Shown here: positions 6,147 to 60,044 of the stretch, one piece after another | Layout: each line of letters opens with the position of its first letter | How positions within the stretch are numbered: the first letter of the stretch is position 1 | Origin: Schmidtea polychroa | Lineage: Eukaryota | Length of the DNA: 64,000 bases | Direction: 5' to 3' | Assembly (NCBI GenBank): GCA_044892525.1 | Contig: CM097885.1 | Coordinates: 140,058,001 to 140,122,000, forward strand | Made by a program: the position numbers and the translations under genes | The notes under the pieces: generated by a model | The model's database searches: none | Told to the model about the DNA's origin: nothing | What the model saw: the letters and a program-made list of their open reading frames with translations, nothing else

Positions 6147-9100
6147 TTAAACAAAATTTACTTTATCTAGAAGAGAATTTCGTTCATTTACAACTGTTTC
6201 GCTCTAACAGAATTCATTAAATAAAATTTTGGATAAAATAAAATTTGTCAACTTTTTCCAAGACTCCATTAAAATAATCTCGAAATTTTTGATCCGATTC
6301 AATAACTTTCCTGTATTTTTGTATTTTTTTCTCTTGCTTTCTATCATATACGATACATAATAGATTGATAAAAATAATTAAATTTACATTCCTGTTTGTT
6401 TTAAATTTTCTATTTCTAGTTCTTGCCTTCTTTTATCATTTTTCAATTCTTCAATTAGAGTTTCTTGAAATTTTAATTGGCTCGGATAGATCTAATTAAG
6501 AAAAAGAATGATAATTTATCATTTCCTCTTCAAAATAGAGACATTCAACAATATCCTGTGGTTTTCATTAAAACGATTTATGAAATTTGCTTTCTTAAAT
6601 TGTTACACTTTGTGTCAATTGATTTTTGATATAATTGTTGGCATTTATAGAATTTTAAAAATCTAATTATTTTAATGGTCATTATTTCGAAGGCATTTTT
6701 AATGAAGTGGGACAAATTTTAACGTATAAGATCTTATATTTAGATCAAAAAGATGTTTTAAGATCAACTTCTGAGTTCTTGGAAGTTTACATTAAACAGC
6801 AAAAGTTTAATATATATTTAAATTAAATTTAAGGAAATTATTTATTCAAGCAGAGACGGCCAACCTCCGGCTCGCGAAATTCATCACACTTACAAAATAT
6901 ATTTGATAAATAATTTTCATACTACTGTATAATTATAAGTAGATAAATATTAAAAAAATTATTTTAGTAAAAGATACATCATATGAGGGGCAATTAAAAC
7001 ATTGAAACCATTTACTAAAAATATTGTCATTAAACAGCTTTTCAATTAAATAAGGTGTTTTTATGGTTATGTTTTGAATACAATTTAATATAAATTTTCA
7101 GCCGGGATTTAATATATAGAAAGTAAAAAATTGCTCCGTTACTTTTGACGGTTAACAGCTTGTTATATCAATATACAAACATTTTTTTTCATTGTATTGT
7201 CGGTAATATGAAGTAAACAAGTTATAATGCACTTGCACAAAATTTTTGAAATATATTCATCTCCTTTTTATATTGAAATCGAGTCGGCCCCTAAATATCT
7301 CCAAACGGAACTGATTGACTTACAATACAATATTAAATTAAAACACATTTTGGAAACATCAGAATCAAAAATAAATTTTTATAACACTTGCGTCATAAAA
7401 GAGAAATTATCCAATTTGAGAAATTTGGCACAAAAAAGTTGTTTGCGCTTTTGGTTCAACCTACACCTACAAATAGTCTTTTCGAAAATGAAATTGACCA
7501 GACAAAAAACACGCATAAACATAGTGGACGCTAACTTTCAACACCAATTACGATGTGCAAATACCCAAATTGAGATCGATTTGCAAAAGCTAAGTAAAGG
7601 AGTGGTGGAACAAATATCGCAATAATAAAATAATTATTTTTTAATGATTTTATTTTTTATTTCATTTATATTTATGTATTTTCTATATTTAATTTCTAGT
7701 GTTATATATTTCTTTACTGTATACGTTTAGTATCATTATTACTATATTATCTATGTTTACATGTAAGAATAAACGTAAACACAATAATAATAATAACTAT
7801 GTTTCAATTTTTCACTCCAAAAAATGTCTATAGGGTATCTAATTTTAATATGGGAATTTATAATTTTATGTGTGCCCCGCGGAGTTGTGATGCCTTTCCA
7901 ATGTGGCCCGCAAGATCGTTTGGGTTGGCCTCCCCTATATTAAAGAATAAAGAAGATCAAGATCCTCATACAATTGAATAAGAAATTTATACAATATGCA
8001 ATTTATGGAAATTTTAATAAACTATTTATGTTATTGCAACAAAATAAACTCAAAATATTATTATATTTTCCAAAATAAATGTGTAATATTTTAAAATGAT
8101 TAATTTCAATTCAACTTTGCTTGTTTTTTTACTAAAGAAATTGCGGTTGACACGTGTAATTCTTTCTATTCATTATGTGAAACAAAGACATATTTTAGAC
8201 AGATGGTAAATTAAGTCATATTTTTCAATAAATCAACATTTAAAAACATTTTTAAAAACATTTTTAATGTTATTAATGTTTTATAAAATTTCGTAATTAG
8301 TATGAATGTCAGGTCAATTATGATTTATTAGATTTTTCTTAAAATACTGATTTTTAAAACAATTCTAAAAATAGCTTCATTCAAACAATTTCGGGAATTT
8401 CTTTAATTTGATTGTAGTAATTTTCTCCTTTCAGTGACTTCGAGTATTAATTTTAATCATTTTCTAAATACTTAATAATATTTAACATAAAATTTAATTT
8501 TTCTTTTATAAATGGCATTTTATAATGCTTTTCTTTTATAATTTCCATAAAATCCGGTAATCTATTATTATTTTCTAAATTTCTAAAAAAGTTTTGAATT
8601 CGAATTTTATAAAATAACTTATATTATACATTGCTTCTCTTTCGTTCTATTCAACTTATGAAAAGCTGAAATGTGATAAAGCACTTAGAAATGCTCAAAT
8701 TGTATATAATATATACAATTTGAGCATTTCTAAGTGCTTTATCACATTTCAGCTTTTCATAAGTTGAATAGAACGAAAGAGAAGCAATGTATAATATAAG
8801 TTATTTTATAAAATTCGAATTCAAAACTTTTTTAGAAATTTAGAAAATAATAATAGATTACCGGATTTTATGGAAATTATAAAAGAAAAGCATTATAAAA
8901 TGCCATTTATAAAAGAAAAATTAAATTTTATGTTAAATATTATTAAGTATTTAGAAAATGATTAAAATTAATATATACTATATATTTATGATAAAAATGC
9001 CGTAATAGATGACAGTGCCCTTAATTTTTGTTCGTTATTGTGTATTATTTATTTATTATGCCTAAAATAATATGACTTCTTACAATTAATAATATGCACA

Positions 9101-12100
9101 TCAGGATTGGCATAATTCTAAAATAATAACTTTACGAAAACTGTAATGACTGCCTCGTCTTTTTTGTAGGTAAATGAATTAATCTTGTTGGTTATTATTA
9201 TCGACAAAATGTTCATCAAAATTATTTACAAAAAAATGAAATTTATATTCAATTATACTTAAAAAATATGTTGATAACGATTTTTGTAAGCCAGTATCAA
9301 CAAAATGAATACTTTTATTTTCAATAAGTTATTTAAAGACGCGAAAAGACAAGTCTCTTTCCTACTTGTCTTCCATTATTTTAGCTTACTTTGTTACTAT
9401 CACATATAATCAGCGATGCTTTCTAACCGGTTCGCACCGGTTCGTGTGAACCGTTTGTTGTAAATCTTATAAAATAAATTTACTTTGATAAATTCAAAAA
9501 AGTATACAAATTTTGAAAATTTGATCTAGTTTTCTTAACGTTTGTAATTTATTTTTGTACAATTCTATAAATAATTTGTTGTTTATTCATACACCAACAG
9601 TAGTGTTGCATTTAAATCATTTTTATCAAATTAATGATTCAGTTAAATGAAATAATTTAAATCGTAATTGTGTTGCTATTTTTACTGAAGATTTTTAAAA
9701 AAAATCATAGAAAAATCACAATTAGCTTTTTTCCTAGGTAAGGTTACTAGGTAAAAATCAAATTGACCGGTTGAGAAATTTTGGTAAAGCATCGCTGCAT
9801 ATCATGTATGTAAAAAGCAAAATGCTCATTTTACTTATCATTGTTGTGTAGGTTATTTTTTTCTTAAAAGTTGATCGGAATCCAAATTTTATAAAAATGG
9901 TTTTTACAAAATAAAAGTGCTCAATTTGAACAAATTTATACAAAATATTCTTCATCAAAATATTACATTTTTAGATGATATTTCATTTATTTTCATTTTG
10001 TCAAAAAATCAATATATTGTTTTTATTATGCTCAGCATAAATTTTCGGCTTTGACTTTATTGAGCTAAAAAGTTTTATTGATAAATTTATCAGTAATTAA
10101 ATTATTTCAATAATTTCTATTTACTTACATACTTCAAATAGGTTTAATTTAATATTTAATTATTAATTTATATTTCATAATTACAGTAAAACTTCGATAA
10201 TACAAAATATTGGGATTTCAGAATTAGGTTCTAATTATCAAGGTTTTCAAATTAACAAAGTTTTACTGTATTAAGTAAATGCAAATATATAGAGTTCATT
10301 AATTTTTATAGCAGATGTAAAATGTTCAAATTATTAGGTTTTACAATTAACGAGGTTTCGAATTAACAAAGTTTTACTGTATTTAGAATTAGTACTTATC
10401 TTAAATATAACACTTTTTATATGCTTTTTTGTCACCATTTAATTAATTAATTTAAAATAAATTATATAAAAATGTTCTATAAATTATATAACTCCTAATA
10501 TACATGATTGTTCGCCAACTTCTCTTATACAAACCAAACTAGATGGCAGCACATTTTTTATTTCTAAATTATTTAAAATTTATTATTAAAACGCCACATT
10601 TGCAAAACAGGTTTACGAGTTCGACATATAACATCGGTATATATTGTAGCTATAGTGGGGGACTGTACCTGTATCGTAATATGACTTCTTACCTATATCG
10701 TAAAGATAGAAATGGACCAATATCGTAAAAGTTTAAAATGGAACAATATTGCAAAATTGAAAAATGGACCTATATCGTAATCCATGTTTAATCTGTATAT
10801 TATAAAATAGAGATAGAAAAATATAAAAATATAATTTATTTTTCAAACATTCAATAATTTAAATGACAGGTTTAATGATAAAGTCAATTTTTTCACCACA
10901 AGATGGACAAACAGGGTTGTCTGAATTTCTAACTGATTAATATACCCTTGCGACATGTTGAATGTGACCAGTACCCTTGCTAGCAATACCCATAGGGGGA
11001 CAGAATATTTTGCCGGATAAACTCAGACTATATGGTCTTTATTAATATATCAAAAATTTATTGGATCATTAGTATACTCATTTAATTGGGATTGCAGGAT
11101 ATTATTTTGTTTTTTAATTTACGATATTAATTAATATTTCTTGTTACAATATAAAAGAAGAAATTAAATTACGATATTAATTAACATTGCTTCTTACGAT
11201 ACAGAATTTTCACGATATAATTCCCACATTACGATAAGTTTTTTTACGATACAGGTAGTGGCAATCGCTATAGTTTAATGTAAGTAACAAAGAACTTAAC
11301 AGCCACATATAAATATTTGGAATATATAGTATATTTTTTGGCAAACAATAAAAATATTAAAAATTTCCATCATTTTTGTTAGTAATATGTCACTTTTATG
11401 CAGAATATTGATGTTATAAATATCATAATTCATAATTTTCTTTCACTTGAGATATTTTTTCAATGAATCTTGCAGCAAGGTAGTGACGTTAGTAGTTTAT
11501 AAGTTCTTTATATTTTATAACATTGAAAATCTCTACATTTTCTACAAAAGAAGTAGGTAAATTAAGTTCGAATATTTGTATATATCATTGACATGTCAAG
11601 TGATAAAAAAATACACGAATAATATAAAAATAACTTTAGTTGAAAAGATTTGTTTGAATGCCCCCTAACTCTAAGTCAATAATGAAATTGCAAATAAAGA
11701 TTTTGCTTTATGAAATAAATACAATAAATAATAGATTTACTAACTCTTTCATATGAAGATTCTAGGTGATTATCACCATTTTCTTGATTTAAAGTAGATC
11801 TAAATGAAAAATTAATTAAAAGCGAAAATAAATACAAACAATTCCAGTTTACTCACAATTGCACAGTACTCCCTTTAACACCAGCAAGACGACGCGTTAG
11901 GAGTTGAATTTCGTCATTTAGTGCATCTCGTTCTGATGACACGCTAAGCAAAGACTTTTGAAGTTTTGCCACTGGAAATTTAAGATAACTTCTTTATGGA
12001 CCAATAGATTGTTTTACCTTCCAATAAATTGTTATTTTCACATATCGCAAGTTTTTGTTGTTGTAAGTTTAATTCTTCCAATAATAGATGATTTTCTTCA

Positions 12101-15100
12101 ATGACAAGTTTGGCTTGTTGGACAATAACTTGTCTAGAAAGATTTTATAAATGACTGATAAATTAGTTAAAAGTTTAAATTTCTCAAAAATAAATCTTTA
12201 TAGTTACAACTAAACTTAAAATATGAACCTAATATCAAAAAACTCAAAGTATTTATGTAGGGCCACCCCTAACAGTTGTGGAGCCTAGGTCAATCATAAA
12301 ATATGGAACCCTTTAAAAAAAACATTATGTCCAACGGTACTTATTATTACCATAATTATTTTGTCTGTTTATGTCTATGATGTGATTTAAAAAGAAAAAA
12401 AAACATTTTGTTTTTTACTATAAGGGTACCAAAATGGTGGTCAGATATTAGTATTTCTGTCATATATTTGGTCAACTAAGGGCTAAAATAAAGATATTTC
12501 TTTAATATATGTAAAAAAACATACAACAATAAAACTACATAGATTATATGATTAAAATATTTTAAAGTGGTAAGAAGTTTAAAGACGAAAATTAAGGAAA
12601 ATAATAATTAAAAGGAATTCTATTATTAAATTTATTTTCCTTGATTTGATTTCAGTGAAATACTTTATTACATCATCAAATACTAATTTTTACATATTTT
12701 TTGTTCTATGGATTATAATAACAAAGTTAGACAGTCTCCCATGTAGCATGTCATGCGTAGGTAATTTTCTATTATTTTTAATTTGAAATATCTAGGTTTA
12801 GCTGATTCAATAGAAATAAAGATGGTTAATGGAATTCAGTTAGATTTGGAAAAAAATAATATAAATAAACATTGTAAAATAGTTGCATTTGCATTTTTTA
12901 CATTTTTTTACATTTCTATTACAACTTCTTAAGGACTTCTCGTTTATTGTCTTTAATATAGAAAAATAGTAAATAAAACAAAAAACAACAATATTCAATT
13001 AAATTTGTTTAATTTCTTTTTTTGAAACAATTCCTTGTTCTTTTATTTTTAAATGTTTTATATAAATATATTATTCAGTAATAAAGTGAAATGTGAATGT
13101 TTTAATTAATACACCTGTTTTGGGAAAAGATATTTTACGAAGGTTCGATTTCGTTAGATTTGTTTCACAGTAGAGATTGTCATCATTATTGCAGCCTTGA
13201 AATGCTTGATTTTCCATAGAGCAAACAGAATTCATTTTTTCGGTATCTTTTAACTTCAAATTCGTGAATAACTTTAGATTTTTATCCTTACAAAACTTTT
13301 AAATTCAAATTTCTATCAAATTGAGGTAACGAATTTTTAGATTCTTCCAATAACTTATCTTCTGTGATAAATGAACCACGTCCCAATTTGTAAATGAAAT
13401 CTAAACAGCCCTTTATTCCATCGGTAGAAACTATTTCTTCACTAAGACTCTTATCTCTTTGGCATTTGAGTAAATATCAAGAATTCTTTAATTTATTTTC
13501 ATTGAAAAATCTCCAAATGATTAGTTCTCAACGAATCCAGATTATTAAATTTAACATAATTAAAATAATTAACATATTTCTTTAAGTTAAGTCTTTTAAA
13601 AACTTTATTATTAAAACAAAACTATTTTTTAAGAAAGTTTCACAGAAAACCGAATTAATATTCCTCAACAACACCATCGTTAACGAATGGCTAATAGGAA
13701 ATGCCTTTAAATGGTTTGAGAACTTTAATAAACGAATATTTAAAGCCATTAATAATGTAAACTAAGTGTATAGAATGAACACGTTCGAGAAAATTACTTA
13801 TAAATAAATCGAAATTGAGTATTTTAACTGAAAATTGCGGGCTGCATAATTAACTGCAAAATTAAATTTTATATCCAAATACATATACATTCATCATATT
13901 ATAGAGACTTTTATGCTGAGTTCAACGAGCTATATTTTAAGAAATACTGATTATTTAACAAAATTGAAAACTCTTATAATTAGGGCGGTAACAAAGCATT
14001 ATTGCGCCCTGTGCGGTTCATATATTTGGCGCCCCTAAAACCCGAATTCAAATCAGCCTACTATAATTATTATAATATTCATGTTGAGATTGTTAACTAT
14101 GTATTTATCTCCAGCTATTATATAATAGGTGGTTATGCTTTTAAAATTCTGTTGCTAATTGAAAAAATGACGGGAACCCATTTTGTGACTAACATTTTTC
14201 AAAATACACACCTACGAAGATAGGCTAGTTAGTGTCGTTTTTTCGTGCAGGCCATTTGATAATTTCTTTTATTTATATTTTGTTATTTTTCTGGTAACAT
14301 TAAAAAATGTGACATTCCAATTTGACATTCCCTTTCAGATGTGCGACTGCACCGCTCGCACCACCCTTGTTACGGCCCTGCTTATAATCAATAACTTTTC
14401 AAAACTCTACGTAATTTTTTCAGAAAATTTCATTCCGAAAATAAGTATCCTCATAAACACAAAAATTTGTTGAAAAACATTGAAATTTGAAATGTTGTTT
14501 TTAAAAGTTGCGCCAAAATCTCAAATATATAAACAACATACAAATATCTTTAAAATAATCCAACTATCAATTATCATCAAAAATTTGGTTATTTTCATTA
14601 ATTTTATTAGAATTATTTAAAATGGCATGCCATAAATTTAAGCAACACATTTTACTGTAATCCTAACGATTTTCATTAATTTAAACACAAGCAACTGAAA
14701 TGCAATTTACGGTGAACCGAATGCGTTCTATAAAAACTGTGATTGATTTCAGCTAATCTTTGTAAATAAAAGAAATAAAAAAGTAAAAATCTGAAAACAA
14801 ACAAATCTGCTTGATTTGACAAAGGCCCTCCTTTTTGATTCTCTTGCAGTTTTATATGCAATCTTTCATTTTCTTTGATTACTTGAAGAATTTCTTTTTC
14901 AAAGTTCTCTATTTCATGCTGATAAAAATAAAGCAAAATTCTTGTCGAAATTTAAATTACTTTAATTTTTTGAATTTGATAAGATTGTTGTTGGTATTTC
15001 TTATCGTGAAATACGAAAAGAGGAGCTAAATATTTCGTATTCATTAGCCAATTCGGAACAGGACCTTTGCCAGGGAAAATGGTTTTTCCAATAGGTCGAC

Positions 15101-18100
15101 CGGGTTCATCAGATGGTATTTGGGAGCTGAGTTCCATATTTAAACGATATATAGTATCCTGTAGCAAATGTATTTCAGCTTTCGTCTGTTTGATTGAGGA
15201 CCTAGACTCTGTAATTAATCACGTATATAAAAATTTCAAAATGAATATAATTTTAAAATGAAATCAGGATGTCTGGAAACCTTAATTTAATTAAACAATT
15301 ATTTAATGTATTCTATTTAACAAATTATCATTGTTTTCCCCTTAAATAACAAGTATATCACTGTCACTACTAGGAATACCTTTCATTTCCAGTTCCAAAA
15401 TGCCTTTATATTATATGTATGTAGTATCGATTTCTATATTTGTCCATCAGTGTACTACAATTATTGGGTTCATCAAAGCCTTACTTTGACAGATTTAAAA
15501 TGAATGCATGTAGAAATCTATATTTTTTATATATTCTCGCTTTGATTTTTTTATCGGATTCTGATAAAAGTCACATTAGACTAGAACAGCGTTTCCCAAA
15601 CTTTTTTGACCACGGCCCGGTACGAGATTTTAACATTTTCGAGCCCCAAACTTTGGAAAACGCTGAACTAGAATATGTTCAATTGCACACTTATTGACAC
15701 TAACATAGGATTTTCTTGAACTTTGCTTGCAAAGTTTTTCCTCAAACACTTATACATCTTTCTTGATTACTTGATATAATACTTAGTCTGAATAGATATA
15801 AAAGTCTTTTCTAGAGTTAATAAAACTGTCAATTGCACTGTTGTGTTTTTTGAATATTTAAATAATATGTTATCTTGGTTTTATTTTTACCAATAAAATC
15901 AAATAATTTTCGAATGTTTAAAGTCGTTTCAAAGAAAATTTATTTTATACTCAATTTACCTGTGTTAAAAATTCATTAGCAGTTAAATCTACAAAGTTAT
16001 TATAGGTTTCAAAATAAGACAGAAAAAATAAACGAAATATGCAAATAAAGATAAAATGCACCCGTTAAAGAAAAACAAATACATATAAAGTTTTTAATGC
16101 GCAGTGTTTTCATACTTTTCTACTTTAAGGATAAATCGTAGGTCCCAGACTTTAAATTGGTAAACAATTAAAACATGTTAATATATTTTAAAAATATTAT
16201 TCTCTACATATATAAATAATCAGATTTAGCAATATATTCAAGTTGTTATTTCTATTCTTAAATATTTCTATTCTTGAATCAAATGTAACGGTTGTCACAT
16301 TTCCTTCCAATATCATGTTTTATCACATTTGAGGTAGTTATTTAAATAAAAATTATTTTCTTTCTAAAAATCTTATCTACTGACTATCTAAAGTATTATA
16401 TTATACAAACAAATGACGCGTAATTTTAAATTTTGATATTGATTTGAATTATGTTAAGGAGTTTTATTTTCTTTTTCTATTCTATTTTATTAGTAATGAC
16501 TAGTTAGTCATTTTGAAAAAGTTACAGTTTTGAAACTAGAGTTTACTTGATTTATGATATGTAATAATTTATTATTTCAGTAACTATTTTATTATAAAAT
16601 AAATGTTTATTACCATCGTTGATGAAATTAACCTTTTCAGAAGTAGAAAAATCAACCGTATTATATGAAGGTATATAATGATCTGAAATTTATTACTATA
16701 TTATTGGTAGGAAATTATATATAATATATACTTTGTATGTTATTTGAGGGTTGTTTCATATGATTATGATTTATATCTGGTTTATTTGATTTCGTATTAT
16801 GTCTCTTTTTTAATGATTCTTCCTTTTCCATAGATGCTTCGGGATCCATGTTGACTTGACAATTAGCATAACCATTGCCTAAAACATCTACATTAAAACA
16901 CTGTTTATTAGTTATTTGTTATATTTAAGAATAAATCATTCTTAGGTAAATAAATGAGATATTTCACTTACTTTCATTACGGTTATAAATAAAAATAAAT
17001 TATTTTATTCCTGTGTGACACAAAATTTGGCAATGCCTTTATCAAATGTTATTGAAGAATGCATTAACAAAATTTGTGTTACATGGAAATAAAATTGAAA
17101 AACCTTTGATTTATTGTCGCAACTCAGACAAGTCAAACTTCCAAAGATGTTATTCACAATTCAATTAAAAACAATTCATTAGAAGACCAAAATCAGATGC
17201 GATGTGGGATGTATCTTTCAAAAAACATGATATATACTTCTTCATTAAATTCAAACAAAAAATTTGAATTTAAATTGTTGAGGATATCTTAATAATAAAA
17301 ATTGAATAATTATAGTTAAATTAAACAAAATGATGGGGAATGTATAAAATAAAAGGTGTGGTTCCACAATCCTGGACAGTTGGAGCAAGTTGAAGAAATG
17401 AGAAAACAAAAGAGAAATGATAAAGAATTGAAAAAATCAAACAATCAAATAATGAAACATGGCAAGGTCATTTTTAATTAAAAAGTACAAAAGAAAGAAG
17501 GTAAAAACAAAACAAAATCGAAATTAAATTTTCATATCCCGATAGCCTGGTCGAGATAAGGAAAAGACATCACCTAGAAAGCCGGGAGAGGGTATTTTTA
17601 AAATATTACATATCTCGACTGCGGTCAGAGATATTAGACGAATTGAAGAGAACCAAACGAAATGTGACGGAAAAGATATTTAAATTGAAGTCAATATCAA
17701 TAAGTGCCACTAGATTGTAAAATATAAAAGGAAACACGGCTAGAATTCAAGGAGAGTTGAAAAGTGAAAAAATAGTTTGGGATAAACAAAAATGAGGTAG
17801 AATTTGAGAAGAAGACGAAAACAGAAATTGTAGAGAAAGGAAGATAATAAAATTAAAGCGAAACTAAACGTGAATTACAAAGTTACTGGAGAAGCAATTT
17901 AAAAAGATAAGGTTATTGAATAAATTCGAGTCGAAGCCAAGAAAGCAACTAGATAAAATCTACCGATTATTGAAACCAGAAACAGTAGTCAAGTGGTTAT
18001 GAGTTCCAAATTGTATTGAAACGTACCATTCTTCCCGAAGAGTTGTAATAAGCACTCGGTTGGTCATTGTAATAGATAATTCTTTGTGTCGCTGTGAATT

Positions 18101-20812: not shown

Positions 20813-23401
20813 TAATTATTAAAAATAAATTTTGGTTTTTGGATGACTAGCTCCAATGAAAGTTTATAAAATGATATTCAATACAATTTCAAATTTCAGA
20901 TTATTTTCGAGTTCTATTGGCTGTTTTATCACCGAACCCTAGAATTTTATTTTTGAATATATTCAATTTTATCATTAGATTCCATGGATGTTATTACAAA
21001 CTTCAATTTTGTTGACACCTATTTAGTTACACAGGCGTGATATGAGTTGCTTAAACGCCTAGTTTGTAGAATATTAAATGTATTTATATAAGAGCGGCAG
21101 AAAATTTGTGATATTTGATGTGACCTGAATAGTCAATTTCTGAGATTTGGTAACAATGTTACGGAGTACTATTTCAGGTAGGAGTGTTTCTTACACGGTA
21201 TCAATGAAAGCAAAATAAACTCGAAAATAACCTGCTATTATGAATCACATCGAATATTATTTTACAAGTTTAAATTAATCAATTAATTAATTAATGATAA
21301 TAATTATAATAAAAATAATAATTAAAATAATAATAGTTATTACGGGTATAACTTATTTAATTCGATCCTAGTTTAATTCGATGTTCCTCTTTAATTCGAT
21401 TTTTATAAAGGTATCTTGATATTCTCATTTAAAATTACATTGATAATTCGATTACCTTAACAAATCGATCAGTCTTTAATTCGAATTCTTTTTATTAAAA
21501 AAATCAAATCAAAGTACCCATTTAATTCGATCTCATTTTTTAGAATTAATTTAAATTTAAAAAAATCATTAAGATTTCAAAATGGTACGAAATATAAAAT
21601 ACAAAACTTTAACTTTAAATCAAAATCTGTCCGATGGACAAAGCATTAAAAATGTTGCAGAAAAGTACGGTGTTCCAGCAAATACATTATCAGCAATCCA
21701 TAAGAAAAAAGAAAAATTAAAAAATGTGCTAGATGATAATCCATTCTTAATAAAAAGAAAAATAATGAGGACAGGAAAATTTGATATGGTAAATAGTGCT
21801 GTCAGGAGCTTTGTTTCAGAAGCCAGAAATAATAATATTCCTTTAAATGGAAATATGATTAGAGAGAAAGCCAAGCAATATGGATTAGCATTAAATTGTG
21901 ATACGTTTAGAGCTAATAATGAATGGCTCTATGGTTTTAAAAAAAGATGGAATAAAATGGCGTTGTTTGACTGGCGATGCAGCAGGTTGAGACAAAAATG
22001 TAGCAAACAATTGGATTAAAACTATATTGAAACTACTTTTTCAGATCTACAATGAAAATGATATTTTTAATGGGGATGAAACCGGTCTTTTTTTAAATGC
22101 CTTCTGGGTAAATCATTTGTGTTACAAGGAAAGTGTTAAAATGAGAGAACAGTAAGGAAAGAATAACCATAATGCTTTGTGCTAATATGCCAAGGACCGA
22201 AAAAATTAAACCGTTGGTTATTGGTAAGCCGAGACGTCAACATTGTTTTAAAAATGTCAATTCACAGCCAGTGGTTTATGATTATAACAAAAAGGCGTGG
22301 ATGAATTCATCCATTTTTGCTAAATGGTTAATGAATTTGGACGTAGAATTTGGGAAGCAAAATCGAAAAGTTTTGTTTTTCTTCGATAATTGCTCAACCC
22401 ATAGAAAAGATGATATCCAATTGGAATTCTTCCCTCCTAACCTAAGAGCGCTTCCTCAATCAACGGATATGGGTATTATCAGATGCTTAAAAGTACGCTA
22501 CAGAAATGGAGTAATAAAAGAAATCCTTAGGTTTATTGAGAAAAAGGAAAATTGGCCCAAAATTACCTTATTAGATTGCATAAAACGAATTTCGAAAATA
22601 TGGGCAGTAGACATCTCTCCTACAACAATCAAAAACTGTTTTAGGAAGTCTGGATTCTATGATGACGATTTCAATGATGACGATGATAATATTCCGTTAA
22701 TAAATATTATTGAAGCAACGGAAACAAATTATATTTCACATTGGCTAATATCCAATTTCAGAGAAGAATTTACGGATTATCTGGATTGTGATGTTAATGT
22801 TGTGTGTGGAGATATGATGACGGATGAAGATATCATTGAAAACGTACAGAATCAGTCAATGTCTATCAGTAATATACCTGAGGATAGCATTGGCGTGGAA
22901 GTGGATGAAACGAATTTGCTTTTGAATTCTCATTTGTGACAAATTCAGAAATGGTCGACTGTATTCAAAAGTTAAGAAATGGAATGATACAGCGATCTTC
23001 TGTACCACAAAGATTTTTCAATACGCTCAATGAAATGGATGTTTTTTTTAGAATCGAATTAAATGTTCTGTGGCAAATTATTTTTAATTTTGTACTTTTA
23101 ATAAATTTGTTTTAAAAATGTAACATGTTTTTGAAATTTGCCTACTACGGTCTAATAATATTATTAGACTTAGTAGTCACAGATATAAAAATATTTCCCT
23201 GTTTAAGTCGATTAATTTTTAAGGTCTCTTGGAGAATCGAATTAAACAAGTTATACCCGTACTATGTTAATGTGTTAGTGAACTAATATTTTAGCTCATG
23301 CATTAGTTCATTGTTAAAATATTACTTATTTTTTTATCAAATTTAATCAACTTCTTTGAATTCCACGGTTTTGAGAAATCTTTTACAGGTCCTTGTCGAA
23401 A

Positions 23402-26400: not shown

Positions 26401-26782
26401 AAATATCCAAATACATAAAATTGCATAATTGTCGTATGTTTTCCTACTCATTAGGCAAATGGAAATTTGTCCGTAGTGACCAACTCTGAAACGTCAATTT
26501 TGTCATATGTATTTATATTATTACTTAATTAATAAATCTTCACAAAAAATTTATATATCTTTATTTTAAATTATAAGAGGTCGCAAAAAAGGTTTACAAT
26601 CATTAATGGGGTCGCGAATGAAAAAAGTTTAAGAAGCACTGCCATAGAGAATTTGTGGGATTATTGTGACCGACAGCTCCGGAAGCAACAGTTCAAAAAT
26701 GTGGATGAGATGTGGATGAAACTCAGAGAGATCTGGTACAATTTACCACTCGAATTTCGTCAAAGCTTCGTAAAATCAATCC

Positions 26783-26841
<59 letters not shown>

Positions 26842-29800
26842 ATTGACTATATAGCGCAGAAACTAGTCAGGTGCAATAGGAGCACATGCGCAAAGCCCAG
26901 GAGGTCGGAGGGGCCTGAAATTTTTACGTCCTGACATTTTTACATTAGAACCGTACCAACTGTAACCCTTGAGGGAAAAATATAAAATACTGAAATCAAT
27001 ATTAATTCACACCACCTAATATATATTAGGAAAATAATAGGTTGCTAATTTGCTGTATAAGATGTTCTTATTCAGCAAGATTTTATTGTTATCTGTTATA
27101 CATTGTATTGTCATTATTACATTAAGATTTTGATAAAATGAAAGCCACAAAAATACAATTAAATAATTAATCTTAAATTATGTAACTATTTAATTATTTT
27201 TGTATTCTAAAAGATTTCTTATAAATCTTTAAGTACAATTAAATTATTAATATATATTTCATATCATATTTGTAGTATTATTACTTTTTCACAAAAAAAT
27301 ATTGAACAGGGCACTGGAAAAGCTGGTTACAATTTATACAGAAAAGGCCGCCGAATAAAAGTAAAAGAATCTTTTTTGATTTTTTTATCTTTTCTATCTA
27401 ACAACACAAACTAAACAATAAAATCACTAACAAATACGGTAATATGTTGTTTATTCTTTATCTAATATTCAAAGTATTTGATTTTATACAGGAAACTTAT
27501 AATTTCTAATATATATAACGTATATTACCAAATAGTATCACTACACCTAATAGTATCATTAATACTATATTTAGTGATACTATTTAAATAATATCACCAT
27601 ATTAAAACATTGTATATGGAGTGTATATGGAGTGGAGTTCTGTAAGGCGTGGATTTCTTCAAACACCGAATCCCGATTAAATAACGAGTCTATACTTGAT
27701 GAAAATGATTATTATGAGGACGTTGAGTATTTGGATGATGATGATGAATAAATTTTTGATAATTATCTAAACTTATTTTTTATTAAAATGACCAAAGCAC
27801 TGAATAATATCACTATACTAACTCTAATATCTAATATATTTTTTTTTGGTGATATTATTTTTATAGTATCACTGATACNNNNNNNNNNNNNNNNNNNNNN
27901 NNNNNNNNNNNNNNNNNNNNNNNNNNNNNNNNNNNNNNNNNNNNNNNNNNNNNNNNNNNNNNNNNNNNNNNNNNNNNNNNNNNNNNNNNNNNNNNNNNNN
28001 NNNNNNNNNNNNNNNNNAATTACGAGTATGTCAGTACATGTGCAAATAATTAAGAACTTAAATATTTATACTTTTTATAGTTGATAAATAAAATGCCACC
28101 TAATAGAGCTAAAATTGAAATTTTGCTATTTGTCAGTTAAATATATAAATAGTAATAAATATATTATAAGAACTATATATAATATAAATAGTTAAACATA
28201 CATGGCAATGATTTAATTATAAGATAACGCCAATCAAACATTCTTTTCACGATATATTTCGACAGTTTTCCTGTCATCATCAGGTGGGATATAATAACTA
28301 TATAAATTAATTTACATAGTTATTATATCCCACCTGATGATGACAGGAAAACTGTCTAACTATATCGTGAAAAGAATATATATAATATATTAAATTTTTA
28401 CGCCATAATAATAACAAAACCTTGTACTAGCGGGTAGATCAATCAATTCCAGTGGTGAATATATATATATATATATTATTATTATTATTATTTTCATATA
28501 CAAATTCATTTATTTTCAGAGTTTCATGTTGACTACATTGACAACATTTCAGCGAAAATCACAGCAAAATATTCATAAAACCAATTAAATTACTTCTATC
28601 TTGTTATTAAATAAATTTACCTCTCCCCCTTGACAGAAAAGATATACAAACCGGTCAGTTATTATGGGAAACGTACATACGTATATTGGAAGTTAACCAT
28701 TCACTTAAAACAATCATGTATTTTGCCCTGGGCCAGGAACCGTACGTAGAATAAGTGAGTAATTTTAAATAGAGATTCGAAGCATTTATTACCAAGCTTC
28801 CGAAAAAGCAGAGATCAATTATGGACTTTTTGACAAAAAACAAAAAACAAGTGATTATAACTTAGCGGTTTTATTTTTTTATATTCCTTTATATTATTGA
28901 ATTATGTACCAATCCTCATCTTCTATGTTAGGAAATAAATTGACAACTATCCAGCTATCCAGAATTGGTTAAGTGCCATATAAACTGCTGTCATAACAAT
29001 GAAATGAAATGTTATTCATTTTTATTCTATATTAAATCAGCGATAAACAAATAATACGGCAAAAACAATCTATTTGACATAAATCGTATGAATTGTGGCC
29101 CTCTTATCAAATCCAACTTAAGCGGGCACGACTGTATAAAGGAATTTATGATGAGTATAACGACAGTAAATTTATGCATTCTTATATCATATAATAGTCT
29201 GCATTTTGGGAGATATGAAACCCAGATAAAATAAGGGAAATAAAAGTGAGACGAGAGGAAGGCTGATAGAGTATAAATAATTATACCAAATGCCGAATGA
29301 CCTTAAAATGTTGCCATAGTAATAATTAGAAATAATTACAATAAAATATAATCAAATTAAAAAAATATATATTTTACTCGAATTGACTGGGAATTTTTCA
29401 GATCTATAAATTGAAAAATATCTTTGTAAAACTAAAACGAAAAATGACAATTATCTCACTTGTTTGTAAATCTTCTTGGGATCTGACAAAATTCATTTTA
29501 AATTGTAAAATTAAAATAATTAAAAAATCATAAAAATATTTATTATAAATTAACTGACTTCATAATGGATGTTTTTCGCATGCTGAATAATGTTGAAATA
29601 TTGAATATAGTTATATAATTATAAAACCTTAATTTTGATGATTTTTTCTTGTTTTCTTTTGGGATTTCATTTTTGTCAATACTCTCTTGACTCAAACCTA
29701 ACAAACTGGAATTAAGAGTGCTAGTTAATAAGTTATTCTGTGATTCATCTAGATTTGGAAATTCTGAAGAAGTAGTTGGGTTTATAACAAATGCCGCTGA

Positions 29801-29951
29801 TGGTATGATTGCGGCTGATATGTATTTAGCATCTTTCTATGTTATCAATATTTAAATTAAATCCATATATATTTGTTTGTATATAAATATTAAGTATTAC
29901 TTCTTGACTTTTTGATCTATTAGAACTGCTTTTCCACTTCAGATTTAGCAT
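5830..29951 (-). CDS. CEP89: CEP89 (CCDC123)-like centriolar distal-appendage protein, multi-exon. Exons traced: 29951-29901, 29836-29628, 15208-14961, 14918-14803, 12133-12018, 11971-11857, 11799-11745, 6491-6388, 6340-6253, 6203-6162, 6036-5944, 5889-5830; other internal exons not resolved
   Basis: GT-AG introns with consistent phase between adjacent traced exons. PNWLMNTKYLAPLF, EIENFEKEILQVIKENERLH and QQAKLVIEENHLLLEEL match my recollection of CEP89 PWLLDMKYLSPLL, QEVVKENEELH and QAKLVLEENKLLLEQL. N-terminal KYISAAIIPSAA resembles the CEP89 N-terminus. Confidence 0.75.
6851..7937 (+). mobile_element. Internally deleted hAT (SPIN/Buster, GTF2IRD2-like) transposon with C-terminal transposase remnant at 7227-7625
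   Basis: TIRs CAGAGACGGCCAACC / GGTTGGCCTCCCCTA; 8-bp TSD TATTCAAG/TATTAAAG; peptide LQTELIDLQ...LRNLAQK...FSKMKL...QHQLR typical of the hAT dimerisation region. Confidence 0.85.
8445..8973. repeat. 529-bp palindrome (264-bp arms, 1-nt centre at 8709)
   Basis: The right arm reads as the reverse complement of the left everywhere I checked by eye. Confidence 0.93.
9411..9797. mobile_element. hAT-type MITE (387 bp)
   Basis: TIR CAGCGATGCTTT / AAAGCATCGCTG; TSD CATATAAT/CATATCAT (7/8). Confidence 0.88.
10184..10379. mobile_element. Tiny Tigger/pogo-type MITE with a duplicated right end
   Basis: TA-CAGTAAAACTT at 10184; AAGTTTTACTG-TA ends at both 10268 and 10379. Confidence 0.7.
10653..11270. 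mobile_element. Foldback-like MITE with arrays of TATCGTAA / TTACGATA
   Basis: TA flanks; TAGTG/CGCTA ends; 14-bp inverted TACCTGTATCGTAA/TTACGATACAGGTA; repeated 8-mers in mirror orientation at the two ends. Confidence 0.7.
10940..11033 (+). mobile_element. Isolated copy of the ~95 bp TATACCCTTG...CGGATAAACT unit seen in the 1.5-4.4 kb array
   Basis: Shares GCAATACCCATAGGGGGACAGAATATTTTGYCGGATAAACT with copies near 1540, 2070, 4070 and 4305. Confidence 0.75.
13981..14380. mobile_element. hAT-type MITE (400 bp)
   Basis: TIR TAGGGCGGTAACAA / TTGTTACGGCCCTG; perfect 8-bp TSD CTTATAAT. Confidence 0.92.
15587..15665. mobile_element. 79-bp hAT/Charlie mini-element
   Basis: TIR CAGCGTTTCCCAAA / TTTGGAAAACGCTG; TSD GACTAGAA/AACTAGAA. 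Confidence 0.82.
18260..19110 (-). pseudogene. Decayed mariner transposase
   Basis: IVSMDETPVYLYVPETKLKFSEW matches the mariner IVTxDETWxYxYxPExKxQSxEW motif; N-terminal VIKFVVLRG; multiple stops and frameshifts. Ends approximate. Confidence 0.8.
21343..23259 (+). mobile_element. Full-length Tigger/pogo DNA transposon with frameshifted transposase (21582-22939)
   Basis: TA-flanked TIRs CGGGTATAACTTATTTAATTCGAT / ATCGAATTAAACAAGTTATACCCG; CENP-B HTH (NIPLNGNMIREKA...WLYGFKKR); DDE_1 motifs (FNGDETG, KAWMNS, LFFFDNCSTH, FFPPN). Confidence 0.95.
23930..24950 (+). mobile_element. Decayed Ty3/gypsy gag-protease remnant
   Basis: Gag-like ETVDE*LADIQRLA...KAFVVGLP; degenerate zinc knuckles (CWNCDKLG); many stops. 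Confidence 0.6.
25882..26790 (+). mobile_element. Internally deleted Tc1 transposon
   Basis: HTH-region TGSVSRL..SGRTRKTTARENRI; catalytic-end PQSPDLNPIENLWDY restored when the MITE below is removed; ends in (TA)n. 5' end approximate. Confidence 0.85.
26360..26641. mobile_element. hAT/Charlie MITE inserted in the Tc1 DLNPIE motif
   Basis: TIR CAGGGTTTCTTAAAC / GTTTAAGAAGCACTG; perfect 8-bp TSD CCATAGAG. Confidence 0.93.
28184..28298 (-). mobile_element. Solo 3' pseudo-LTR fragment of the Penelope-like family
   Basis: Near-identical to ~50837-50949, which lies downstream of the GIY-YIG ORF. Confidence 0.85.
28248..28286 (-). ncRNA. Minimal type-I hammerhead ribozyme motif, intact core
   Basis: CAC-CUGAUGA-U-GACAG(GAAAA)CUGUC-GAA-AUAUAU-C^GUG: stem II of 5 bp, palindromic stem III, AUC triplet (cleavage between 28251 and 28250), stem I only 3 bp. 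Confidence 0.8.
28331..28369 (+). ncRNA. Inverted copy of the hammerhead motif with core GAAA changed to UAAC (predicted inactive)
   Basis: CACCTGATGATGACAGGAAAACTGTC-TAAC-TATATCGTG. Confidence 0.75.
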
Positions 29952-30848: not shown

Positions 30849-31732
30849 TGTTGGGTTTTTAATGTAAGTCGGTACTACGGTCTGACTCCTTTGTGTTCTT
30901 TTCCAAATAAATAAATAAATAAATAACCCAACACAAAATCTTTATTGACACTGATGCAGTTACACTTTTACACTTGTATTAGTTTACTCACACTTGATAC
31001 AATCAGGTTTTTTGTGCACTTTTCAATTTGTTACCAAATCTCACGCAGGGGTAGATCTTCCGACGGGAGATATCCCTTTCTGGTACGTTCGATCTTTTTA
31101 AATGGTTTAATTTCTACTAACTTTAATATTTCCTCTTCCGCTCTCGTCAAACTTCTATTTTCTTTTCTTCGACCAACTGGCATTTTGTTTTCTTGCCAGT
31201 TGCTTTTATACTCGCTTGGTAATTGACTTTATTTTTGCCAATTATTTTTGGTTTTATTTCCCCCCGGGCTTCCTCTTGGAGGTCTAATTTAATTGAAGGG
31301 AATTTGTTCATTTTCTTTGACGGCGCTTATTACTTTTTATCCGGCTAAATTAATTGCCTTTCCAAAATTGGGTTTCTCCGGCTAAATTAATTGCCTTCCC
31401 AAAATTGGATTTATCAATTCGCTCGGGTTTCCCATTGTATCGGGTTTCCCATTAGCTCGGGTTTTCCATTAGCTCGGGTTTTCCATTAGTTAATTAATTT
31501 TTAATTAATTTTTGTTTTTTGTAATTTATTCCTTTTAGGGACCCCCCATTGATTTTATTTTATTATAGCTGAACTCGTCTCATTATTTAGCATCCGCCCA
31601 TACCAGTTTCCCCCAGAAAATATTCATTTTTTAAAATTTTGATTTTTAATTAATAATTTGTACTTTAAATTTTATTTGTGTTTTTGTCAATTTTTCCCCT
31701 CATTTTTGTGCCTCTTTTGTTGAACCCCAACA
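30849..31732 (-). mobile_element. Solo LTR, family A (884 bp)
   Basis: TGTTGGG...CCCCAACA termini; 4-bp TSD GTTC on both sides; highly similar to 51457-52355 and 57843-58741. Confidence 0.95.
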
Positions 31733-32099
31733 GTTCCAACGTTGCTTGCGACATGTGTTTAGTGGCCGATTAAAAAAATAATGCGCGATTGCATATGGGA
31801 TTACGGAAATAAGAAAAGTTTTGGTCGAATAAGAGTTTGGAAGTAAAAGATATTCCCCACATTAGAGAATTTTTATGGTTCATAGCTAAACTGGAAAATA
31901 TAGATAGATCCTGGGAAATAATCATATGATGGGAAACTGGAAATTTATAGATATAAATGAGGATGACGGGAAGCTGATAGATTTAGTGAATTTTTCGAAA
32001 ATTTGGAAGAAATAACAAGAACTCACTATTTTTTGTATCGTAAAATAAAATTATTGAATCACGAATTTCAAATTGTGTAGTGATTTGATATGTCGCATC

Positions 32100-38941: not shown

Positions 38942-44598
<5,657 letters not shown>

Positions 44599-45656: not shown

Positions 45657-46976
45657 CCCTATTATTACCAGGTTGATATACTTACGTAAAACGCCACGAT
45701 GTGACTTTAAGACACATTGAAAATGCATGTAGTTATATTAATAAAATTATATTTTAATAATCCGCATAAGGAGTATTATGTTATTCACAAAAAAAATTTT
45801 TTAACGAAAATATTATATTATATAAGTATTTATATAAAAATAAAATAAAAAAGTAAATGTTTTGTAAACGACGATTTTTTCGCGAATTTACTTTAGTTTT
45901 GTTCCAATCTGGATATAAATTTTTCTAAATAATTTCTGCAGCTATTTCACATACGTCCACAAGATTATAAAACTGTGCAATCGGCCATCTTCTGGTTTTA
46001 CGTTTTACTGAAAAAGCATGACACTTTTGGTCCAACGTATCAACCCCACCTTTTGTACTATTATAATATAAGTTTACTTCAGACTTATTTTTTTTTGTGC
46101 TGTCTACTACATAATTGTGGTGCATTGTGGATAGCAAGACGACAGCACGATTATTTTTGGTACGTAACTGACTAACATCATATTCTTTGTGAAACCAAAA
46201 ATGTTACTTTCAACTTCTCTTCCTCTATTTGGAAGGAAATTTGGTGGTATACATCTTTTGTTCTTTCGTAAAGTACCTACACATGTAAGGTACTTGGATA
46301 ATAAGCAATTTGCAAGTTCGTAACTTGTAAAATAATTGTCTAATGTGATCGTTCAAATGGTTCACACAATTGTTCAACGATGGTTCTACCCAAATTTACT
46401 GCTCGATCAGCTTGTCCTTGGCTAAAGTACGGTATACCAAATAAAGGAAAACTAGTCTTGCTATCATATATCCACCAAATTTTCATTCCGTATTTATCTA
46501 GTTTGGAGGGCATATACTGTCGGAATTGAACTCTGCCTCTAAACGGCACCAACTGCTCATCGATTGTTAAATTTTCACCTGGGATATAATACTTTCTCAA
46601 ACTTTTGTTGATGAGATTCCAAATATTCCTAATTGGTGCAAATTTGTCTTGATTTCTACGTGCCGATCGAGAACAATTGGTCATCAAATAGTAAATGACG
46701 AGATAATGCTACAAATCTGTTTTTTGACATGCATGCACAATAGATTGAGCAGCCAAATAATGAATTTCAGAATTCATCATACTCATATAACCCTTGCTTT
46801 CTTACTCCTGCATCTATCAACAATCCAATATATGCAAGAATTTCTATTTGGTCGGTTTCCTGCCATTTTGCACCAAGGACAGCTCTGCCATGTAAATTCG
46901 TGAATTTAAGGAAAATATTGATAAGATTATCATTGAAAAACAACAAAAATGCAACTAGACAACAATCTATACAAAT
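45657..46976 (-). mobile_element. 5'-truncated piggyBac transposon with broken transposase
   Basis: TTAA-CCC end at 45653-45659; LTIDEQLVPFRGRVQFRQYMPSKLDKYGMKIW; YYNSTKGGVDTLDQ; RRWP. Confidence 0.93.
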
Positions 46977-47465
46977 TATGGGTGACAGCCGGAGCAGATA
47001 TGTGGAAGCGAATGTCAAGTGAGAGATTGGCTCGGAAATAACCATTTGTCATCCGGATTTCAAAGAGTATATAAGGAATGAGAAAATCAGAGCAAATCGG
47101 CATTTTGCCTCAGCTAGGGTTAGAAGAAATCGAGCTTAGGATAAAGTAAAACGAATTTAGGAGATTAGGGAAACGAAGAGATAGAATAAGAATAAAAAGG
47201 GTGAAAGGGGATCAAATCAAAAAGAAATAGGAAAACGTTGGTCAAGAGAACCTAAGGAAATGAAAGGTGAATATTATCTTTATCAAAGCATCAACACCGA
47301 GCGGAGAATCGGTCAAACTCGAACTGTTGGACTATTTATTATTGATTGTGTATTTTTGAGAGAAAATATATTTTGATTTCAATATACGTTGGGTCGTTTA
47401 TTGTTTTGATTTAAAGGACACGAGGAGTCAGAGGTAACCGACTTAAATTAACTGAAAACCCAACA
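46977..47465 (+). mobile_element. 3' portion of a family-B LTR
   Basis: Homologous to the reverse complement of 32928-33420; ends GAAAACCCAACA. Confidence 0.85.
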
Positions 47466-48830: not shown

Positions 48831-50900
48831 TATAAGTTAACCTTTCTGTTTGACGTTCGCGGTTACTAGTCTTACCTATTGCCAATATGGCGCGGAATAC
48901 ACGAGCTTCCCAGTTGTAGGCAACGAGGCGTTACGGCATTCCTTCCCTCACTACCAACATCCACATTAGGCACAAGAAGTTATCTGAAAACGGCGCAGTA
49001 TATCTATTTCACTTCTCGTTGGTGAGACGATGGTTTGAATTTGCTAACTTGCAGCGTGGTGTGGTGGCTGTGTGCCGAAAAACAATACACTATTTTAGAC
49101 ATAGAGAATGATTTCGCCTTTTAGAAAAAAATAGACAGAAAGTCAAAATATATGGCTATATCGTTTAATGAGCATATAATACAATACAAGATTATTACAT
49201 TTCCACAATTATTTGAATTTCACAATTTCAAAAGTTTGATCCTTCCAAAAATATCGGCATAAGTGTACATTGTAACTAAAATGTGCCGGTATATATAGCC
49301 TTATTTTTTGGTGTGCGACTATGTGTGCATGTATTGATTCAGTAAGACAAATTTGAATTATTTTAATTCTACTTAATTTCGAATTCTAATATTTATCGAT
49401 TTTGGTGGCAATTTCTTATAATTTATTTCATTTTCTAATTTTTATATTTTAATTATTGTTAATTAATTTCGCCACCATGAAAGATAAGGGCGTTTTCTAG
49501 AACATTCTATGTTGTTTCAGAGGTTTTATTAAATAATTCTTATTTATTTTAATTATTATGTTATTTAATTTTTGTTTTTTGCTAATTTAATTCTTAAATC
49601 TTTTATTTAATTTCAACTAGCTACTTGGCAGTCATAATAGATTTCGTCATTTTTATACAATATTCTAGATGTTCTTATCAATCCTACTGTAATTTTTATT
49701 CTTAATTTATTTTCTGATGACATTTTGTGGAAATCTTTCTAATTTCGATCCCTACTTTCTCTTATCGCATTTAATTCTGCTGTATGTTTATGTTGTATCA
49801 CACTTCCTGCTTTTGTTTCATTTTTACTTTACTTTTGGGTTTATCATTTTGATGTTGTATAAATTAATTTAATTGTTATTATTAGGTGTTTTGACGTGTT
49901 TTGAGTTTATTTTTACTTACGTTTCGATCAGCCTTCATCTATCTTGGCTTAAAATCAGTTTTTGCCTAACAGTAAGAATAATTAATTAATTTTAAATTAT
50001 TTTATTAATAAAATTAGGTACAATCATTGTACATATATAATGTCGACAAAAATTGACTAGTACAATCATTTAAAGGTAAAAAGAATTGGTAAATTTTAAG
50101 GAAACAGCTGGGTATCCATTGATAGTCATTTAAAATTTATTCAAAATCGGGAATAAAGTTAATATCTAACAGAATTTACACCAGAAATTTATTATACAGT
50201 GCAATATTATGAAAATTTCAATTTTCAAAAAGATTTATGAAAAAGTTTTAATTTTTAAAATTTTATAAATTAAATTTTAAAATATTCCTACAAAATGCAT
50301 GTTTTTATTAGGGTTTGTATAGAGTGATGCAAAAATGATTGAGTGTAAATTGATAAAAATGGCAAAATTTATAAAAATTCAAAAAAATGAGTAAAATAGA
50401 AAAAATTAATTAAAAATTTGAAAAATTAAAAATAGATATGTAGCACATGAAACAAGATCGCAAATTATGAGACTTATTATCAATACAATAATATAAAATC
50501 AATGAAAGGTCCACAGAAAAAGAGATTTAAAAAATACAAATTAACTTTTTAAAAATCTAATTCAATTGGTTTGAAGAAAAACAGCAGTAATTGATAAAAA
50601 ATGAAGCTAGTTTATTTTCTCAAAATCAAATTTGTGAGGTGTTTTCAGCTGAGAGTTAAATATTTCAATGATTTATCAAAATAATTTTAAATTGTAAATA
50701 ATTGACTATTAAAATAACTTTTAAATAATTTTTAAATTGGATTTTTTAAGTTGAAAATTTTGAATTAAAAATTAAAATAGCTTTTTAAAAAAGAAGTTTT
50801 GTTAATGAAATATTTTTAAATAAATATGTTTTATGAATAAATAGTTAAACATATATGGCAATGAATTAATTATAAGATAACGCCAATCAAACATTTTTTT

Positions 50901-50939
50901 CACGATTAATTTCGACAGTTTTCCTGTCATCATCAGGTG
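50901..50939 (-). ncRNA. Minimal type-I hammerhead ribozyme motif in the PLE 3' pseudo-LTR
   Basis: CAC-CUGAUGA-U-GACAG(GAAAA)CUGUC-GAA-AUUAAU-C^GUG, about 190 nt downstream of the GIY-YIG stop; hammerheads are an established feature of PLE pLTRs. Confidence 0.85.
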
Positions 50940-51130
50940 GGATATAATACTCATTAAATAAAGGATTTTAAACAAATCTAATCATATATAAAAAATTTTT
51001 TATTTTATAAAAAATATTATTTTTTAAAACTTTAACATTTAAAATTTAATTTAATAATTTAAAAATTTAAAAAATTTTTTATTAATTATTTAATTTAACA
51101 CAACAATCAATACATACAATACACAAAAGC

Positions 51131-51456
51131 TTATTTAAAAACACTCAACACACAAGTATTTACAGCATTCTGCACATTAATTTTCGGATTCAATGATTTT
51201 ATCAACAACGCCTCACAAATCACACGTTCCCAATAACTATCAAAGTTTTTTAATAAAATTTTAAAATCAGACATACCTATTTTAATCTTACAGCCCTTAT
51301 TGTGCTCACCAATATGGGTCAAAGACTTCGGTCTACAATGTTCTCGAGCTCGAATACAGAGATGACGGGAAGTCTCTCCAATGTATGTGGCATTACACCC
51401 ATTACATGTAAACTGATAAACGAGATCGGAGCACAATTCAACCGGAGTCTTTGACT
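51131..51456 (-). CDS. GIY-YIG endonuclease C-terminus of a Penelope-like element (cut off from its RT by LTR insertion)
   Basis: VYQFTCNGCNATYIGETSRHLCIRAREH...EALLIKSLNPKIN. Confidence 0.93.
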
Positions 51457-52355: not shown

Positions 52356-52369
52356 TATCTCCCCCCTTT
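52356..52369 (-). other. Polypurine tract AAAGGGGGGAGATA
   Basis: Immediately 5' of the 3' LTR on the minus strand. Confidence 0.9.
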
Positions 52370-55940: not shown

Positions 55941-55957
55941 ATTTATCGGATTATATT

Positions 55958-57369: not shown

Positions 57370-57842
57370 AGTTTTTGTGAATTCAAGTATAAAAGAAATA
57401 TGGTGAAGGGGTTGATTTATCGTGCATGGTCTTTGTCTTCTACTTTTAAAAATTCGGTAAAGAGTGTTGACGTGTTGGTTGAACTGTTGATGAAGAATGG
57501 TTATTCAAAATCCTTTTTAGTAATTATGGTGAAAGAGACTGTTGACAAATTTATTAAAAATCCTAAGGATCCATGTTTGAGAAAATCTGGGTGTGATCTT
57601 GTTGAGATGTGTGAGTCTGATGAGTTAAAATCTGTGTGTGATTTTGTTGAGGTGAATGAGTCTGATGAGTTAAATAAATTAAATAGTGTGAGCAAGGACG
57701 ATAAGCCTAAATTTGTGTTAATATTGCCGTACTCAGAAGGTTTTAAGGATTATAAAGTGAAGATAAGAAAGCAGTTAGGGAATTTAAACTATAGGATAGT
57801 GTCAACTTCATGGAAAGTACGCAATATGTTTATTAATAAGTC
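57370..57842 (+). mobile_element. Inverted duplicate of the PLE thumb/linker region, ending at the LTR insertion site
   Basis: FCEFKYKRN...RNMFINKS nearly identical to the reverse complement of ~55986-56460. Confidence 0.93.
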
Positions 57843-60043: not shown

Positions 60044-60044
60044 A

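Follow-up and report, generated by a model that had tools for sequence, protein, structure and literature searches.

The hairpin at 28240-28377 of the analysed window (64,000 nt of Schmidtea polychroa, assembly GCA_044892525.1, contig CM097885.1, positions 140,058,001 to 140,122,000 of the forward strand) is a very short example of a known insertion type of Penelope-like elements (PLEs), i.e. a 5′-truncated copy with its inverted twin. Its origin as a PLE insertion is well supported, and the whole structure was very probably produced by one retrotransposition of an endonuclease-bearing PLE, with the locking of the hammerhead ribozyme in the hairpin as an incidental by-product. The insert is composed of two 5′-truncated copies of the PLE 3′-end, only one of which carries the tail; they meet head to head in a TTAA that belongs to both, and profile searches place the insert within an intron of a CEP89-like gene.

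Structure of the insertion

The hairpin makes up the larger part of one 190-bp insert (28187-28376), which lies within a 13-bp target-site duplication and includes the following features.

28174-28186 (+), target-site duplication, left copy TATATATAATATA, 13 bp, the only exact repeat of at least 8 nt across both junction regions
28377-28389 (+), target-site duplication, right copy, 13 bp, exact repeat across the junction regions
28184-28310 (-), direct 5′-truncated copy of the PLE 3′-end (pLTR with hammerhead, and tail), 108 of 113 nt identical to 50837-50949
28184-28215 (-), optional PLE tail, 32 bp, between the two 3′-ends of the family, the second marked by a loose-end cluster before 28216
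28307-28310 (no strand), head-to-head junction, an element-internal TTAA common to both copies, with 4-nt overlap
28307-28377 (+), inverted 5′-truncated twin, which according to the arm comparison is without the last 53-56 nt, tail included, by which the left (direct) copy outruns it

A repeat like the 13-bp duplication was present at 27 of 8610 background positions, and the last 3 nt of its left copy also match the 3′-end of the element. The borders of the family were read from contigs of four of the 23 listed sequencing runs, which were compared with the window (X1, X3 and X5, DNA-like, and X7, RNA according to the tool's guess). Among the loose ends listed, those at 28184 were without consensus (59/111/90/7 contigs) and mark one family 3′-end, and a second 3′-end, 32 bp from the first, is marked by loose ends before 28216 in 19 (X1) and 26 (X3) contigs. 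At 28240, the inverted twin stops 24 nt before reaching this usual tail boundary (28216), its end thus not being canonical. Loose ends with a consensus were listed behind 28309/28310 and before 28307, i.e. the family continues past the centre of the hairpin, and since its copies do so with one consensus, both arms are 5′-truncated at the shared TTAA. A copying of the hairpin centre from the target flank (85% likeness) was rejected, as other family copies share the centre and run beyond it. No empty-site allele was found among the 15 joints listed for the run contigs.

The inverted repeat itself consists of two arms of 69 nt each (28240-28308 and 28309-28377), 96% complementary and with a spacer of 0 nt, in agreement with the 138-bp near-perfect inverted repeat described in an earlier sequence-only reading. 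Its longest perfect run is 41 bp, and the hairpin proved to be a strong minus-strand fold (28170-28400, -110.9 kcal/mol, z = -16.8), none of 200 shuffles being as good. The arms mismatch at three sites, 28257/28360, 28260/28357 and 28302/28315. The last is located outside the hammerhead core, near the loop, and the earlier statement that the arms differ in core positions only was therefore wrong.

Rfam matches at gathering threshold numbered 0 in the window. When matches to E 10 were included, 24 were obtained in 28020-28600, none at gathering and no hammerhead family among them, presumably reflecting that minimal hammerhead variants escape the Rfam models. A known miRNA or other Rfam family was rejected as the identity of the hairpin, as the miRNA matches were all far below gathering and typical of any long hairpin.

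The PLE family

Two further PLE loci in the window bear on the identity of the family.

50837-51460 (-), 3′-end of a PLE of the same family, with GIY-YIG frame, pLTR with intact hammerhead (50939-50901), and tail
55958-57842 (no single strand), second head-to-head PLE, RT region 55958-57368 (-) abutting the inverted duplicate 57369-57842 (+)

Pfam domains were obtained for GIY-YIG on 51134-51466 (E 6.5e-5) and for RVT_1 on 55946-57064. The intact-core hammerhead at 50939-50901 follows the GIY-YIG stop at 51131 by about 190 nt. In each of the 7 queries, the RT (55958-57368) and then the GIY-YIG frame were spanned, in that order, by a single relative. This order and the near identity of the insert to the DNA behind the GIY-YIG frame assign the family to the endonuclease-bearing PLEs. 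It shares with Penelope-like elements the RT with C-terminal GIY-YIG, the pLTR hammerhead, a tail of 30-40 bp, the inverted 5′-truncated twin and the duplication. The Penelope/Poseidon clade is told from Neptune and Nematis by RT phylogeny and by the lack of a Cys-rich finger between RT and endonuclease; of these characters, the stretch directly before the GIY-YIG motif was inspected by eye, and no CxxC was seen there.

The family is very abundant, in the order of 10^4 copies, summed depth being no copy number. Summed contig depth on 28221-28287 was 301,724 (X1), 6.8 million (X3) and 1.48 million (X5), and depth on clean single-copy pieces was 11-18, 210-231 and 34-52, respectively, giving in all three DNA-like runs a ratio of about 2-4 x 10^4, which is rough and not a true copy number. 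An exact-motif scan found no locus in metagenome contigs and none in viral contigs, and seven metagenome loci from the RT query were discarded as spurious, only 14 residues being matched.

In the second head-to-head PLE, 55986-56459 and 57369-57842 are alike over 474 bp at 99.4%. TTAA is found in both head-to-head PLE junctions of the window (57367-57370 and 28307-28310), an observation made post hoc on two cases.

Host gene

A frame of 88 aa at 15218-14955 had 17 relatives in an HMMER library search, and 8 of the 10 clusters looked up carry the CEP89 name; with the same exon, nothing was found in a word-index search and in the Atlas. A CEP89 profile made from 12 relatives was compared with the window in six-frame translation (1949 segments), and four collinear minus-strand segments were obtained, at 29836-29546 and at the three positions grouped in the second line below. 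The match at 15.2 kb is circular and the other three are not.

29628-29836 (-), N-terminal coding exon of the CEP89-like gene, lying upstream of the insert (profile E 3.6e-6, positions 14-69; piece of an X7 contig)
11983-15218 (-), downstream CEP89-like coding segments 15218-14955, 14951-14679 and 12144-11983 (profile search)

The X7 contig, 2455 nt long and from the run guessed to be RNA, matched 29628-29836 only and was absent from the listed parts of the hairpin. In a separate look-up, no RNA source was listed for the hairpin stretch, which carries no information on expression. Because CEP89-like minus-strand exons are predicted on both sides, the hairpin is most simply placed within an intron with the left hammerhead in sense, which accords with the intron and the orientation claimed in the sequence-only reading. 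No plus-strand gene was seen in the window over the hairpin site.

The same intron contains a second multi-copy repeat at 28556-29158, with depth up to ~70x single copy and 85-90% alike to other copies. A short repeat at 27527-27873, MITE-like by appearance, has 45-bp inverted ends (27573-27617 and 27829-27873, 80%) and adjoins an N gap.

Hammerhead motifs and core changes

Both arms include a hammerhead motif, of which one is intact.

28248-28286 (-), minimal type I hammerhead, core intact, predicted cut after 28251, following the criteria in PMC4209133
28331-28369 (+), mirror hammerhead, G12 and A15.1 changed (28357, 28360), predicted dead

The left hammerhead has a 3-bp stem I, a 5-bp stem II closed by G-C, a palindromic 6-nt stem III, and an extra U between positions 9 and 10.1, before stem II. 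Hammerhead numbering and core consensus were checked against PMC4209133. The characters of the minimal type I motif (core, nucleotide 9/10.1, G10.1-C11.1, palindromic 15.2-16.2) are present in the left copy and in the copy at 50.9 kb, and the right-arm copy departs from them at G12 and A15.1. The intact-core PLE hammerhead claimed for the minus strand of the left arm was thereby recovered (28286-28248, the same motif as behind the GIY-YIG frame), together with the caveat of a stem I of 3 bp, and the claimed opposite-strand copy is likewise predicted to be dead, with G12 and A15.1 changed. The two intact copies (left arm and 50939-50901) differ by a double change which keeps the stem III palindrome, indicating that the family as a whole maintains the ribozyme. 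A non-LTR retrozyme, defined in 10.64898/2026.07.22.740005 by tandem direct units with an intact hammerhead each, was rejected: the two copies here are inverted and one of them is mutated.

The core changes at 28357 and 28360 are derived, as 50939-50901 has the left-arm bases. The probability of at least two of three mismatches falling in the 12 core nt was 0.076, or 0.038 on one arm, or 0.32 if the pair is counted as one event (post hoc). Both core changes are on the host-antisense arm and the sense core is untouched, for which p would be 0.019 had the direction been predicted (post hoc). The placement of the changes is statistically unremarkable. Through the double change, a 9-mer arises that also stands 62 nt upstream (28295-28303); 14 of 576 simulated double changes did likewise, and the pair may represent one templated event, an account as good as selection and no less post hoc.

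Folding and masking

With the mirror included, the computed cost of a hammerhead-compatible ensemble was 58 kcal/mol. In prefix folding with the mirror ahead of the ribozyme, there was hardly a stage at which the 5′ core was unpaired, and no stage at which stem II formed. In the monomer without the mirror, the hammerhead fold is 4.6 kcal/mol above the ensemble, the stem I pair probability is 0.05-0.06, and no intramolecular stem III is formed. The unmasked monomer is thus predicted to be near-inactive, and since it is poorly folded there would be little to be locked. A lock would have little or no job, as hardly any cleavage is to be expected of a solitary minimal hammerhead that lacks stem III and has a stem I of 3 bp. 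Comparable hammerhead monomers gave no in vitro cleavage according to PMC4209133 and PMC11167929. In a cofolded pair of monomers the active dimer was not the lowest-energy fold, which neither supports nor excludes a dimer.

The plus-strand transcript forms the same hairpin at -100.7 kcal/mol and would lock an unmutated mirror as well. In the minus-strand fold, a 4x4 loop at the GAAA of the intact copy results from the core changes, which thereby weaken the pairing; this bubble and the plus-strand hairpin together imply that the core changes are not needed for masking. Of the masking by the antisense arm that had been proposed from the letters, one part stands, i.e. the arm is made first and, judged by folding energy, sequesters the ribozyme fully. 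A purpose-built device with a purposely killed mirror is unsupported, because the mirror is the standard inverted 5′-truncated PLE twin with 13-bp duplication, tail and TTAA junction.

Proposed origin

On the model of the PLE literature, a GIY-YIG endonuclease would have nicked the AT-rich target, and the RT would have copied only ~125 nt of the 3′-end of the element. The twin would then have been formed either by self-priming of the folded-back end at the TTAA or with the second nick providing the primer. The hammerhead would be the ordinary pLTR motif of the family, which the mirror, being transcribed first in the pre-mRNA, is computed to lock. The three mismatches may be RT errors or later decay, the two in the core possibly from the single templated event.

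Alternative explanations

An assembly or amplification artefact, i.e. a fold-back chimera beside the N gap at 27879-28017, is very improbable. The gap is about 170 nt away, the window has another near-perfect palindrome of 529 bp, and the hairpin is spanned in full by none of the contigs listed for the runs matched to the window. Against this, however, the arms have three mismatches, are asymmetric and are bordered by the 13-bp duplication outside both ends, and the right arm with both core changes is present together with unique flank in a contig of run X1 at single-copy depth (28330-28450, depth 17.5, 0 other letters). Run X1 may be the source sample of the window. No variants within 28240-28377 were among the rows listed for the run contigs against the window; contigs of run X5 did not cover the right flank, which proves nothing. 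For a real hairpin, it is highly unlikely that the host keeps the intact ribozyme, together with an arm that masks it and a mirror selected to be dead, as a regulatory or protective unit. Of the three mismatches, two are derived core changes on the antisense arm, as such a unit would have it, but these changes weaken the stem and unpair the GAAA of the intact copy, a plus-strand transcript is locked without them in a place with no plus-strand gene seen, the third mismatch is outside the core, and the pair is explained about equally well by a single templated event. PLE transposition is expected to leave mirror-image hammerheads, for which an adaptive story is unnecessary and caution is called for.

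That the intronic hairpin functions as a precursor of siRNA or miRNA-like small RNAs which silence its own PLE family is quite improbable, although it has a long near-perfect stem with the 41-bp perfect run in a transcribed intron, and antisense small RNAs were reported over Penelope copies of a rotifer (PMC3846280). In a family this abundant one locus should add little, and the miRNA matches among the 24 sub-threshold Rfam hits reflect any long hairpin. It is also conceivable, if unlikely, that the hairpin arose as a by-product but that selection decided which copies are seen: sense-intronic copies with a free hammerhead would be purged, as they would cut the pre-mRNA if dimerised or helped by the PLE protein, and self-locked copies would persist. 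The complete co-transcriptional masking predicted here and the family-level upkeep of the ribozyme speak for such purging, as do the depletion of hammerhead-bearing retrozymes in Xenopus introns (10.64898/2026.07.22.740005), by which intronic copies may carry a cost, and a hammerhead whose cleavage is absent without protein and switched on by the PLE protein (PMC11167929, in which cleavage is unnecessary for insertion). Yet it concerns a single locus, about 43% of the Xenopus retrozyme copies are intronic anyway (same preprint), and the Anolis RNA-seq described in PMC11167929 had no reads ending at the predicted cut site. Only a small probability is likewise given to the head-to-head layout being a built-in safety lock of PLEs, by which the hammerhead would be sequestered whichever strand is transcribed and would escape selection against sense-intronic ribozymes, and which may feed hairpin small RNAs against its own family. 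With copies by the tens of thousands, a genome would allow such locks to be counted and would show whether PLE hammerheads cleave RNA in vivo at all, which PMC4209133, PMC8557442 and PMC11167929 leave undecided. Locked copies being favoured in sense introns genome-wide would be indirect in vivo evidence of cleavage by PLE hammerheads.

Relation to known systems

A single PLE retrotransposition with an incidental lock, the preferred reading, has close counterparts in the cited papers. In the typical Penelope structure, the direct pLTR is overlapped by an inverted one beside it, one of the two carries a tail of 31 bp, and the duplication measures 9 bp; palindromes are abundant at head-to-head junctions, where they were read as self-priming (PMC3846280). 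The same inverted-twin layout is stated for PLEs in general in PMC8557442, and a PLE tail of 30-40 bp is described in PMC3846280, PMC8557442 and PMC11167929, in the last of which it is tied to two RT start sites, with AT-rich targets. Like Pen2a_Av of Adineta vaga (PMC3846280; scheme in Fig. 2 of PMC8557442), the stub has an inverted 5′ copy, a palindromic overlapping junction, a tail on one arm, a short duplication and an AT-rich target; unlike it, the stub is extremely truncated, without ORF and without a second direct pLTR. Its overlap is 4 bp versus 15, its duplication 13 bp versus 8-10, and its twin is shorter by 53-56 nt versus 37 (PMC3846280).

With the minimal hammerheads of metazoan PLEs (PMC4209133), the motif shares type I, the core, the extra nucleotide 9/10.1, G10.1-C11.1 and the palindromic stem III/loop 3, as well as massive dispersed copies and close opposite-strand pairs. 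Stems I/II are of 3/5 bp, compared with 4-5/7-8 in Schistosoma and 2/6 in Drosophila virilis. In the same source, dual minimal hammerheads are ~100-700 bp apart on opposite strands and a single motif is without cleavage, whereas the motif spacing here is 44 nt and one motif is core-mutated. The PLE family of the stub may already be included in the alignments of the PMC4209133 supplement. Poseidon PAc of Anolis (PMC11167929) likewise has two 3′-ends defining a tail, an AT-rich target and a pLTR hammerhead; PAc was assayed (no cleavage without protein), the present hammerhead being a sequence-based prediction. As in CPEB3 (PMC10274809), a self-cleaving motif is in sense within an intron, but the CPEB3 ribozyme is HDV-like, conserved and of measured activity, and the hairpin belongs to a very numerous set of transposon copies and shows no sign of conservation or activity. 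A search by title and abstract start, outside which most subscription journals lie, found no paper on a hammerhead masked by the inverted copy of its own PLE or on self-locked copies surviving preferentially in sense introns, a weak negative.

Other features of the window

The window was assigned to an AT-rich animal. The 529-bp palindrome at 8445-8973 is 99.8% perfect, AT-rich and essentially without spacer, and by eye it has no canonical hammerhead and no clear target duplication; it may be a foldback element, another head-to-head insertion, or an artefact. At 50837-58741, a PLE is apparently interrupted by a Ty3/Gypsy-like element, with the GIY-YIG end beyond the left LTR-like copy. The LTR-like 900-bp copies at 57843-58741 and 51457-52355 are 99.9% identical, in opposite orientation and with a common 4-bp flank, suggesting a local inversion or mis-scaffolding which also encloses KLHL20/diablo exons at ~54.8-55.9 kb. 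A third LTR-like copy (94%) was found at 30849-31733. At 55744-55944, a tandem duplication of ~100 bp (87%) comprises a KLHL20 exon end and donor and adjoins the end of the inverted PLE RT copy at 55958; it was possibly made at PLE insertion.

Remnants that we take, from their motifs, to resemble Tigger/pogo, Tc1, piggyBac and gag/non-LTR frames are located at 21573-23115, 26536-26838, 45925-47048 and 59015-63746. A Rab11-like exon was found at 41472-41852.
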